Shown here one piece after another: positions 61,970 through 63,911 of a stretch of DNA of 64,000 nt; the first letter of the stretch is position 1; every line of letters starts with the position of its first letter. Both the position numbers and the translations under genes were made by a program. The notes beneath the pieces are model-generated. The model saw only the letters and a list, made by a program, of their open reading frames with translations, made no database searches and was not told the DNA's origin. Origin of the DNA: Escherichia coli O127:H6 str. E2348/69 (GTDB lineage Bacteria > Pseudomonadota > Gammaproteobacteria > Enterobacterales > Enterobacteriaceae); NCBI RefSeq assembly GCF_000026545.1, contig NC_011601.1, one strand, 5' to 3'.

Positions 61970-62019
61970 TCTCTTTTGAGCTTTAAGCTGAAAATGGCGC
62001 TGTAAAAGGCGCCATTTTT

Positions 62020-62304
62020 TTATTGCGTAACCAGACGGCGCAGTCGCGACACATCCACCGTTTTTTCCGCCTCTGCCAGACTCCAGGCATTTTGCAGATT
62101 CAGCCACATTTGCGGCGAACTGCCGATCACCACGGACAGTTTTATTGCCATTTCTGGCGTCAAAGCTGCTTTTCCGGTCAGCAATCGGCTTGCCGTTGAG
62201 GGCGCAATTTCCATTGCTCTGGCAAACTCGCGCAGGCTGACATTAAGTTCGTCCAGTGATTCCAGAATAATGTCCCCCGGGCGGGGATGATTGGCCATTT
62301 TCAT
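62020..62304 (-). CDS. yddM: HigA-like XRE-family antitoxin YddM
   Basis: 94-aa HTH ORF; start overlaps stop of upstream toxin-like ORF. Confidence 0.85.
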
Positions 62305-62582
62305 CAGTGATAGTCCTCGTAATCCAGTATGTATGCATCGCCATTGACGAATTCAAATGTGATTCGCCAGTTGCCCGAGACAGATATCGCCCAAATTCCA
62401 TCGCGATCGCCGCTTAACGGATGTAGTCGGTAACCGGGCATATCGATATCAGCAAGACAGCATGCTGCATCAATCACAGCGAGTCGGTGGCGTAATCGTT
62501 TGACTTGCGTCGGTATAACGCCGGAGGTTTTGCCGAGAAGAAACAAGTCACGCAATCCCTTGTGTCTGAAATTCATTATCAT
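62304..62582 (-). CDS. HigB-like (RelE/ParE superfamily) toxin candidate
   Basis: 92-aa ORF ending ...[28 protein letters not shown] stop-start overlap with yddM. Confidence 0.65.
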
Positions 62583-62767
62583 CTCTTCATCCTTGTTCCC
62601 TCGAAAGGAACACTATCACTATTGTTCCGTGCAGCGCAACAAATTTCGCTACGTTTTCGCGAATTGTGAGGGGAAAGATGGGGGAGGAAAAGAAGAAGAG
62701 TGAAATTGCGGAAAGCGTCTCGAAAAACAGGCTGCGACCCGAACATGGCAGTCGCAGCAAAGGCCTC

Positions 62768-63778
62768 TTAGCGGCGGAAATCAATCACCATACGGCCACG
62801 GATTTTGCCTTCTTCCATCTCGGTAAAGATGGTGTTGATGTCCTCTAACGGACGCAGGGCGACTTTCGGCACCACTTTGCCTTCGGCGGCAAACTGGAAG
62901 GCTTCGGTTAGATCCTGACGCGTGCCGACCAGCGAACCGACCACTTCAATACCATCCAGCACCAGCCGTGGGATGTCCAGGCTCATAGACTCCGGCGGCA
63001 GACCGACAGCCACGACACGACCACCTGCACGGACAGCATCCACCGCCGAGTTAAACGCAGCTTTAGCTACCGCTGTCACCACCGCTGCGTGAGCGCCACC
63101 GGCTTTCTCCTGCACAATTCTGGCGGCGTCTTCGGTGCGTGAGTTAATCGCTAAATCTGCACCCATTTCGGTTGCCAGTTTTAACTGTTCATCATTGACA
63201 TCAATGGCGATCACTTTGGCGTTAAAGACATTCTTCGCGTATTGCAGGGCGAGGTTACCCAGACCGCCAAGACCGTAGATAGCAATCCACTGTCCTGGAC
63301 GAATTTTTGACAGCTTAACGGCTTTGTAGGTAGTGACCCCCGCACAGGTAATGCTGCTGGCCGCCGCCGAGTCCAGACCATCTGGCACTTTTACCGCGTA
63401 ATCGGCGACCACGATGCACTCTTCCGCCATCCCGCCATCAACGCTGTATCCGGCATTTTTAACTGAACGGCAGAGCGTTTCGTTACCACTGTTACAGTAT
63501 TCGCAATGACCGCATCCTTCGTAGAACCACGCCACGCTGGCACGATCGCCTGGTTTTAATGAAGTAACACCAGGGCCAACTTCTGCCACCACACCAATAC
63601 CTTCGTGTCCCAGAATCACGCCGGTTTTGTCACCAAAATCGCCATTCTTAACATGAAGATCGGTATGACATACACCACAACACTCCATTTTCAGCAGGGC
63701 TTCGCCATGTTTCAGTGAGCGCAGTGTTTTATCCGTAACGTCAACATGATGATCCTTCGTAACAACTGCAGCCTTCAT
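62768..63778 (-). CDS. adhP: alcohol dehydrogenase AdhP (zinc-dependent)
   Basis: 336-aa product from internal ATG of ORF 62768..63808; GHEGIG and GLGGLG motifs. Confidence 0.9.
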
Positions 63779-63911
63779 AGTTCCTCCTTTTCGGATGATG
63801 TTCTGCATAGCAGGTGAGGCAAATGAGATTTATTCGCCACTACCCAGTATGGATGAGATCTGAAAAAGGGAGAGGAAAATTGCCCAGTAGCCTTCACTAC
63901 CGGGCGCAGGC

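Follow-up and report, generated by a model that had tools for sequence, protein, structure and literature searches.

The closest described relative of the system treated here is the HigB–HigA (host inhibition of growth) pair of the Proteus vulgaris plasmid Rts1, whose toxin is a proven ribosome-dependent RNase. In this pair, alanine substitutions have shown that His54, Asp90, Tyr91 and His92 of HigB are each essential for toxicity in vivo, many of their neighbours being dispensable (Schureck et al., PMC5027501). The hig promoter contains two operators of 21 base pairs (bp), over the -35 and the -10, each bound by one HigA dimer, and Arg40 of HigA is the sole base-specific DNA contact in that system (PMC12266136). 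A gene pair of this kind is found in a 64,000-nucleotide (nt) stretch of contig NC_011601.1 from Escherichia coli O127:H6 str. E2348/69 (the window), where an open reading frame (ORF) of 92 amino acids (aa), here called higB, precedes the gene yddM. A preliminary description made from the sequence alone had likened the C-terminus of this ORF to that of RelE-fold toxins of the HigB family, and had proposed that yddM encodes an antitoxin rather than a stand-alone regulator. The analysis presented here points to an active chromosomal type II toxin–antitoxin operon of the HigB/HigA kind, intact in E2348/69, and a probability of about 0.85 is attached to this reading. It is built on gene structure, family membership, fold, catalytic residues, synteny, purifying selection and operator conservation, all of them established here.

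The higB-yddM pair and its control region

The elements that define the pair are the following:

62304-62582, minus strand: higB, 92-aa toxin ORF of the HigB family (RelE fold), with ATG at 62582-62580 and TGA at 62306-62304; RefSeq WP_000605675.1
62020-62304, minus strand: yddM (= higA), 94-aa helix-turn-helix (HTH)-XRE antitoxin and, by analogy, probable autorepressor
62302-62306, minus strand: TGATG stop/start overlap, read directly from the sequence (higB TGA 62306-62304, yddM ATG 62304-62302)

HigB matches the Pfam family PF05015 (HigB-like_toxin) with 63 bits and an E-value of 3.8e-17, against a gathering cut-off of 27 bits, residues 4-92 lying on profile positions 2-91 of 91; a hidden Markov model search of this sort had been recommended in the preliminary description, and its outcome, like the comparisons that follow, bears out the family assignment made there. 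The best matches among solved structures are all P. vulgaris Rts1 HigB (4MCT, E 1.2e-31, full length). Both proteins are 92 aa long and align without gaps at ~57% identity, and a constant one-residue offset in chain 4MCT_B means that native HigB numbering carries over directly. His54, Asp90, Tyr91 and His92 are identical here at the same positions. In an alignment of 19 homologues (Escherichia, Citrobacter, Buttiauxella, Cedecea, Mannheimia and several metagenome-assembled genomes), neither these four residues nor Asn71, Trp72 and Arg73 vary. The preliminary description had allowed for the conserved catalytic residues being lacking; all four are kept. An AlphaFold2 model of HigB, built without templates on an alignment of homologues that included the P. 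vulgaris protein, has a predicted local distance difference test (pLDDT) score of 95.5 and a predicted template-modelling (pTM) score of 0.86. A fold search with this model placed P. vulgaris HigB chains on top, including ribosome-bound states, with template-modelling (TM) scores of 0.94-0.98 and root-mean-square deviations of 0.5-1.1 Å (best superposition, TM 0.98 and 0.6 Å); GraT, YafQ, RelE and YoeB came next at TM 0.5-0.66, and ParE2 at ~0.45 with a probability of ~0.5. In its predicted structure HigB has the RelE-like microbial RNase fold, in which two N-terminal helices pack against an antiparallel sheet. Within the RelE superfamily it belongs specifically to the HigB family, and outside the RelE/StbE subfamily, because the NCBIfam model of the latter (TIGR02385) scores 17.4 bits, below its cut-off of 27.9. 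PADLOC did not recognise the toxin, and its matches for YddM were weak and of a generic HTH kind, so that assignment to a known anti-phage system is unsupported.

YddM scores 92.1 bits against the NCBIfam equivalog TIGR02607 (antidote_HigA; cut-off 47.7), and Pfam HTH_3 covers its residues 17-65. It is 99% identical to PDB entries 2ICP and 2ICT, deposited as 'antitoxin higa' and described in later literature as E. coli CFT073 HigA (PMC6393540). It also matches P. vulgaris HigA (E 1e-18), with Ser23, Thr37, Ser39, Arg40 and Lys45 retained. On these profile and structure matches, YddM is a member of the HigA antitoxin family.

The two genes lie tail-to-head on the minus strand with the toxin first (higB 62582-62304, then yddM 62304-62020). 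Base 62304 is common to the higB stop and the yddM start, giving a 1-nt overlap that reads TGATG on the coding strand. The peptide and coordinates of the ORF, its TGATG overlap and the toxin-first order are as the preliminary description had them, and the strand, which it left unstated, is the minus strand. In a scan for the pair that took one genome per species and returned 31 loci, the toxin-first order is kept in 26 of the 26 loci having both higB and higA. The TGATG overlap is conserved within Escherichia, and two Citrobacter species have instead a 4-nt ATGA overlap; in these (Citrobacter spp. Awk 4 and NCU1; loci L014 and L016, 2770-2785) the higB stop is displaced by 3 nt, yielding a 93-aa protein that ends in ...DYHA. 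The neighbours in the E2348/69 RefSeq record are fdnH-fdnI upstream and adhP-maeA downstream. RefSeq holds a coding sequence with identical start and stop for higB under the name 'type II toxin-antitoxin system RelE/ParE family toxin' (WP_000605675.1), and yddM as 'HigA family addiction module antitoxin'. The exact HigB protein is also named 'Killer protein' or 'proteic killer suppression protein', and is present on at least 1000 contigs.

The genomic setting of the pair extends well beyond E. coli. At least 12 Citrobacter species have higB-higA convergent to fdnI, and so do Escherichia albertii, Escherichia sp. MOD1-EC7003 and two further E. coli genomes; adhP occupies the opposite flank in the loci from Escherichia and in those of Citrobacter spp. 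Awk 4 and NCU1. HigB identity is 82-99% where FdnI identity is 94-99%. Since higBA stands beside fdnI in E. albertii and in the Citrobacter species, the operon complete with its toxin is the ancestral state of this site, and yddM on its own the derived one. The ratio of non-synonymous to synonymous substitution rates (dN/dS) of higB is 0.05-0.11 between E2348/69 and the Citrobacter orthologues (dS ~0.7-1.4), with a median of 0.08 within Citrobacter, values that indicate purifying selection on higB. Plasmid relatives of HigB are all less than 60% identical (Rts1-type toxins in Providencia, Salmonella, Citrobacter and Pantoea), a figure that sets aside three E. coli records filed as plasmids but probably chromosomal, and the best phage match, in Escherichia phage GER2, reaches 61%. 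As plasmid and phage relatives are at most 61% identical, HigB at yddM represents a distinct lineage that is chromosomally inherited. The three PLSDB records set aside (NZ_CP141085.1, NZ_CP141089.1 and CP054253.1, of 385 kb, 4.9 Mb and 252 kb) encode HigB 94-100% identical to that of E2348/69; they were rejected as evidence of mobility, because records of such sizes look like chromosomal sequence deposited under a plasmid label.

Around the two genes, the following regulatory elements have been located, the functions of the two Shine-Dalgarno elements being presumed:

62612-62639, minus strand: candidate sigma-70 promoter, -35 TTGCGC (62639-62634), 16-nt spacer, -10 GATAGT (62617-62612)
62621-62641, minus strand: putative operator O1, imperfect palindrome TTGTTGCG-N5-CGGAACAA, overlapping the -35
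62593-62613, minus strand: putative operator O2, palindrome (G)TGTTCC-N7-GGAACA(A), directly downstream of the -10 (repeat family D1)
62590-62594, minus strand: AAGGA, Shine-Dalgarno-like element 7 nt ahead of the higB ATG
62314-62318, minus strand: GAGGA, probable Shine-Dalgarno element of yddM, within the 3' end of higB and 9 nt ahead of the yddM ATG
62728-62758, minus strand: adhP terminator hairpin, GCTGCGAC-N12-GTCGCAGC plus T-run (terminator scan and inverted repeat I4)
61991-62018, no strand assigned: hairpin with a stem of 10 bp where fdnI and yddM converge, RNA folding energy -15.9 kcal/mol (z -4.6), with T/A runs on both sides

O1 and O2 form two palindromes of 20-21 bp, 29 bp apart start to start. 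Their half-sites are constant and their central spacers vary in Citrobacter, E. albertii, another Escherichia species, several E. coli alleles and the K-12 orphan. All orthologous loci compared retain the candidate -10 and -35, and AAGGATGA at the higB Shine-Dalgarno-like element is conserved from Citrobacter to Escherichia. This comparative conservation is stronger evidence for the promoter than its consensus match, and suggests a weak one. By analogy with P. vulgaris hig, YddM would bind O1 and O2 in its own promoter, the putative operators lying at the expected place. The adhP terminator insulates the hig promoter from adhP, and the hairpin between fdnI and yddM is a probable bidirectional terminator.

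Taken together with what is known of the P. vulgaris system, a mechanism can be proposed. The weak promoter between adhP and higB would yield a single bicistronic mRNA, from which higB would be translated first and yddM next, via its own GAGGA ribosome-binding site and, possibly, coupling through the TGATG overlap. The HTH-XRE dimer of YddM would then bind HigB and neutralise the toxin; neutralisation by direct binding, with the antitoxin as the more labile partner, is what the P. vulgaris HigB2-HigA2 complex would lead one to expect. YddM would also repress the operon at the two ~21-bp palindromic operators, over the -35 and just past the -10. On the other hand, a shortfall of YddM would leave free HigB in the ribosomal A site, where it would cleave mRNA with a preference for A-rich codons, using His54, Asp90, Tyr91 and His92, and translation and growth would halt. 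Toxicity, ribosome dependence, codon preference, neutralisation, autorepression and coupling are all carried over in this scheme from the P. vulgaris system.

Two side observations concern the neighbouring genes. A mechanical ORF list gives adhP (window 62768-63808) 346 aa from an upstream ATG, whereas RefSeq and the homologues start it at 336 aa (MKAAVV...). The fdnI-yddM spacer differs among strains by whole copies of a 178-bp unit with palindromes resembling repetitive extragenic palindromic (REP) sequences and bacterial interspersed mosaic elements (BIME): no copy in E2348/69 (50-bp gap, window 61970-62019), one in CFT073, NRG857c and DETEC-E1005 (spacer of ~225-228 bp; locus L006, 1264-1488), and two in tandem in K-12 (406-bp spacer; locus L002, 1521-1926).

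Toxin loss and the orphan antitoxin in the population

The state of the locus was counted in 5426 complete E. coli genomes, a set biased by the clones sequenced, sequence type 131 (ST131) above all. The yddM region is present in 5413 of them and higB DNA in 1330 (24.5%). The proposal that yddM is an antitoxin, and not a stand-alone regulator, depends on the strain: it stands for E2348/69, but ~75% of complete genomes, K-12 among them, have lost higB and retain only yddM. The gap between yddM and adhP measures 146 bp in K-12 and O55:H7, against 464 bp in E2348/69. Pairwise and local alignments of the K-12 and E2348/69 upstream regions show that the K-12-type spacer (locus L002, 2212-2356), which O55:H7 shares, has retained the half-site pairs of both operators as well as the -10, with a nearly identical yddM coding sequence; its operator spacers and flanks are further from the E2348 type than those of Citrobacter are. 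No intact higBA allele with K-12-type operators was seen among the alleles inspected (746, A287, ST131, E. albertii and Escherichia sp.), in a search that was not exhaustive.

Where higB DNA persists, it is often broken. The exact ST131-type allele, a 1-bp deletion at higB nt 98 (window equivalent 62485), occurs in 545 of the 1330 higB-positive genomes, including O25b:H4-ST131 (locus L005, 701-978). This deletion leads to a stop after codon 35 and is flagged 'frameshifted' by RefSeq, and the downstream yddM is intact. The wild-type sequence is exact over the 61-nt site around nt 98 in 492 of the 5426 genomes, and most other higB-positive genomes carry point substitutions relative to both allele probes, among them an intact divergent allele with C41S (WP_000605676.1). 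Other lesions of independent origin include a 17-bp deletion in AH21G053 and a 9-bp in-frame deletion in strain A3. The question posed in the preliminary description, whether the ORF is annotated or interrupted in reference genomes, has a different answer in each: it is annotated in E2348/69, absent in K-12 and frameshifted in ST131.

Other rearrangements have been observed as well. In O157:H7 strain TR01, and in this one genome of the 5426, a deletion (locus L009, 593-762) has joined an operator half-site with the final 47 nt of higB; besides these 47 nt, the chimeric junction contains 34 nt of distal spacer of the E2348 type and 29 nt of operator O1 of the K-12 type, and it may reflect illegitimate recombination or an assembly quirk. 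In Citrobacter, higB is frameshifted in C. portucalensis A60 (L029), is reduced to ~27 codons beside an intact higA in Citrobacter sp. FP75 (L039), and is partial in Citrobacter sp. On2M (L028), where higA is not detectable.

The orphan gene itself is well preserved. The yddM genes of K-12 and CFT073 differ by 11 synonymous and no non-synonymous changes, and those of K-12 and E. albertii by 13 and none; the orphan is not decaying and stays under purifying selection. K-12 YddM has been validated as a DNA-binding transcription factor of the Xre family by chromatin immunoprecipitation with exonuclease treatment (ChIP-exo) (PMC6237786), and the Keio ΔyddM mutant is hypersusceptible to epetraborole, a phenotype that was not complemented (PMC12457515). 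A survey of 950 genomes has found orphan antitoxins to be abundant, and the toxin repertoire to be reduced in B2 lineages including ST131 (PMC10790755). The counts show, cleanly and in nature, the decay of a toxin–antitoxin pair to an orphan antitoxin, and this pattern may be of more interest than the operon; it is a tentative suggestion, which we would not press, that selection maintains orphan YddM for a role of its own and that losing the toxin was perhaps adaptive in successful clones such as ST131. Orphan YddM may have been domesticated as a regulator, or may confer 'anti-addiction' immunity to HigB toxins that plasmids or phages bring in. Overexpression of Rts1 HigB is toxic in BW25113, a K-12 derivative that carries yddM, and for this reason cross-protection of the cell from Rts1 HigB by native YddM is weakly disfavoured. 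The good preservation of orphan yddM and its operators in the face of repeated toxin loss raises a question that is modest and of a known kind. A practical consequence also follows: K-12 laboratory hosts have the cognate antitoxin, so that toxicity tests need a ΔyddM host.

Naming in the literature and alternative explanations

The higB-yddM pair is already known, being annotated in RefSeq and catalogued in surveys, with the antitoxin structure solved, and the pair of E2348/69 is in itself of little consequence. A tabulation of 2009 lists HigB homologues for CFT073, 536 and UTI89, and none for K-12 or O157:H7 (PMC2654758). In a survey of adherent-invasive E. coli (AIEC), the pair appears as TA20 'ParE-2/HigA-2', with K-12 and HS having only the antitoxin at the locus (PMC7232551); TA20 of NRG857c was confirmed here to be the yddM locus, with an identical toxin protein. 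TADB 3.0 names the pair higBA. A reader of this literature has to bear in mind that 'HigBA' of E. coli in papers stands for two unrelated loci with opposite strain distributions. For example, a CFT073 ΔhigBA mutant has been reported to have no urinary-tract phenotype (Norton & Mulvey). This mutant was considered as functional evidence and rejected: even when 3 mismatches are allowed, the primer arms match nowhere in the window, and one of them falls in a ygjN-type higB gene in 4207 genomes. The knockout targeted ygjN/ygjM, a different locus, and the CFT073 ΔhigBA phenotypes are therefore uninformative on the yddM locus.

Several points count against an active operon in E2348/69. No direct toxicity or cleavage experiment on the E. 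coli HigB of the yddM locus was found in the literature searched, and a 2024 review states that such pairs 'remain to be characterized' (PMC11205521); the preliminary description had reckoned with an already characterised and annotated toxin, and annotated and listed it is. The toxin is clearly dispensable and often lost: ~75% of complete E. coli genomes lack it, and the 545 mentioned above have it in frameshifted form. The TM of 0.98 to P. vulgaris HigB comes from a model whose input alignment contained that very sequence, and the RelE/StbE model stays under its cut-off. E2348/69 YddM has a private substitution, Q14L (codon 14, window 62263-62265), where all the other Escherichia, Citrobacter, Buttiauxella and Cedecea orthologues inspected have Gln14. 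The candidate promoter, found in a relaxed scan, matches the consensus at only 7 of 12 positions, and a sigma-70 scan at standard threshold found no promoter ahead of higB.

The loss of the toxin also leads to an alternative in which the ORF is intact but attenuated, the locus heading towards solo yddM, with an autoregulated YddM and a harmless passenger. Losses have recurred independently (K-12-type removal, the nt-98 deletion in 545 genomes, AH21G053, A3, TR01 and the three Citrobacter loci), and given these an intact-looking higB could be attenuated; the 11 synonymous to 0 non-synonymous differences of orphan yddM between K-12 and CFT073, and the DNA binding of K-12 YddM by ChIP-exo, fit a regulator that lives without its toxin. 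However, the HigB protein is identical in E2348/69, CFT073, NRG857c and DETEC-E1005, and higB DNA matches at 100% or 99.6% in the type strain DSM 30083, UM146, F11 and Nissle 1917. Catalytic residues are invariant, and dN/dS is ~0.05-0.1 at a dS of ~1, whereas a neutral passenger would not remain so clean, which makes attenuation unlikely, if still the most serious competitor to an active operon. Much less can be said for the toxin being a DNA-gyrase poison of the ParE type, an idea that the names invite: CDD puts the protein in the 'ParE_toxin superfamily', the AIEC survey uses 'ParE-2' for it and treats ParE as an inhibitor of gyrase with a HigA antitoxin as partner (PMC7232551), the RefSeq name 'RelE/ParE family toxin' is non-committal, and ParE and RelE have one fold in common. 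But the specific Pfam match is HigB-like_toxin and no ParE model matches; the identity to a ribosome-dependent RNase is 57% with the four catalytic residues intact; and the fold scores TM 0.98 to HigB against ~0.45 (probability ~0.5) to ParE2. A gyrase poison is thus highly improbable, and the toxin is better regarded as of the HigB-type, mRNA-cleaving kind than as what 'ParE-2' implies. That the ORF might be a chance open frame in the yddM-adhP spacer, with yddM a stand-alone regulator, would accord with K-12 and most E. coli having yddM without the toxin ORF, and with the many spurious ORFs listed in the same region; this idea is already refuted, its probability being next to nil, by homology at E-values of 1e-17 to 1e-31, orthologues conserved in four genera, purifying selection and a confidently predicted HigB fold.

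Comparison with described HigB-HigA systems

An active HigB/HigA operon in E2348/69 would find its nearest counterpart in Rts1 HigB-HigA of P. vulgaris (4MCT/4MCX, 4PX8, 4YPB, 4W4G and 9CHL/9CHN). The toxin-first order, the HTH-XRE HigA partner and its Arg40 are common to both. The two toxins share a length of 92 aa, gap-free identity of ~57%, the residues His54, Asp90, Tyr91 and His92 together with Asn71 and Arg73, and, for the E. coli model, a TM of 0.98; the two ~21-bp palindromic promoter operators have putative equivalents in E2348/69. On the other hand, the E2348/69 pair is chromosomal and vertically inherited beside fdnI, whereas that of Rts1 is plasmid-borne; the half-sites TGTTCC/GGAACA are particular to the E2348/69 lineage; and the E. 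coli protein is known here from sequence and model. Another group comprises GraT-GraA of Pseudomonas putida and HigB-HigA of P. aeruginosa (PA4674), with which the Pfam family and the toxin-first, HigA-partnered layout are shared and whose HigA proteins fold alike. GraT (6F8S) is the next-best distinct structure (sequence E 5.5e-7, TM 0.6-0.84), although GraT-type toxins have only ~30% identity to E2348/69 HigB, and the disordered, regulatory N-terminus of GraT is not seen in the latter (model pLDDT 97 over residues 1-20).

Within E. coli, the 'HigB-HigA' pair of K-12 (YgjN-YgjM) has in common with higB-yddM the name, the toxin-first order, and an RelE-superfamily mRNA interferase with an HTH antitoxin. 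It differs in its locus (fadH-rlmG), in the protein family and in having the HTH at the C-terminus of HigA, and its distribution is the opposite one, being complete in K-12 and HS and reduced to an orphan higA in CFT073 and NRG857c. Finally, the orphan YddM of K-12 (b1477) is orthologous to the antitoxin described here, the protein being the same as in CFT073 and ST131 and one residue off the E2348/69 copy. In K-12 the orphan yddM keeps the same operator half-sites and -10, although the toxin gene is absent and the 5' region has strongly diverged.

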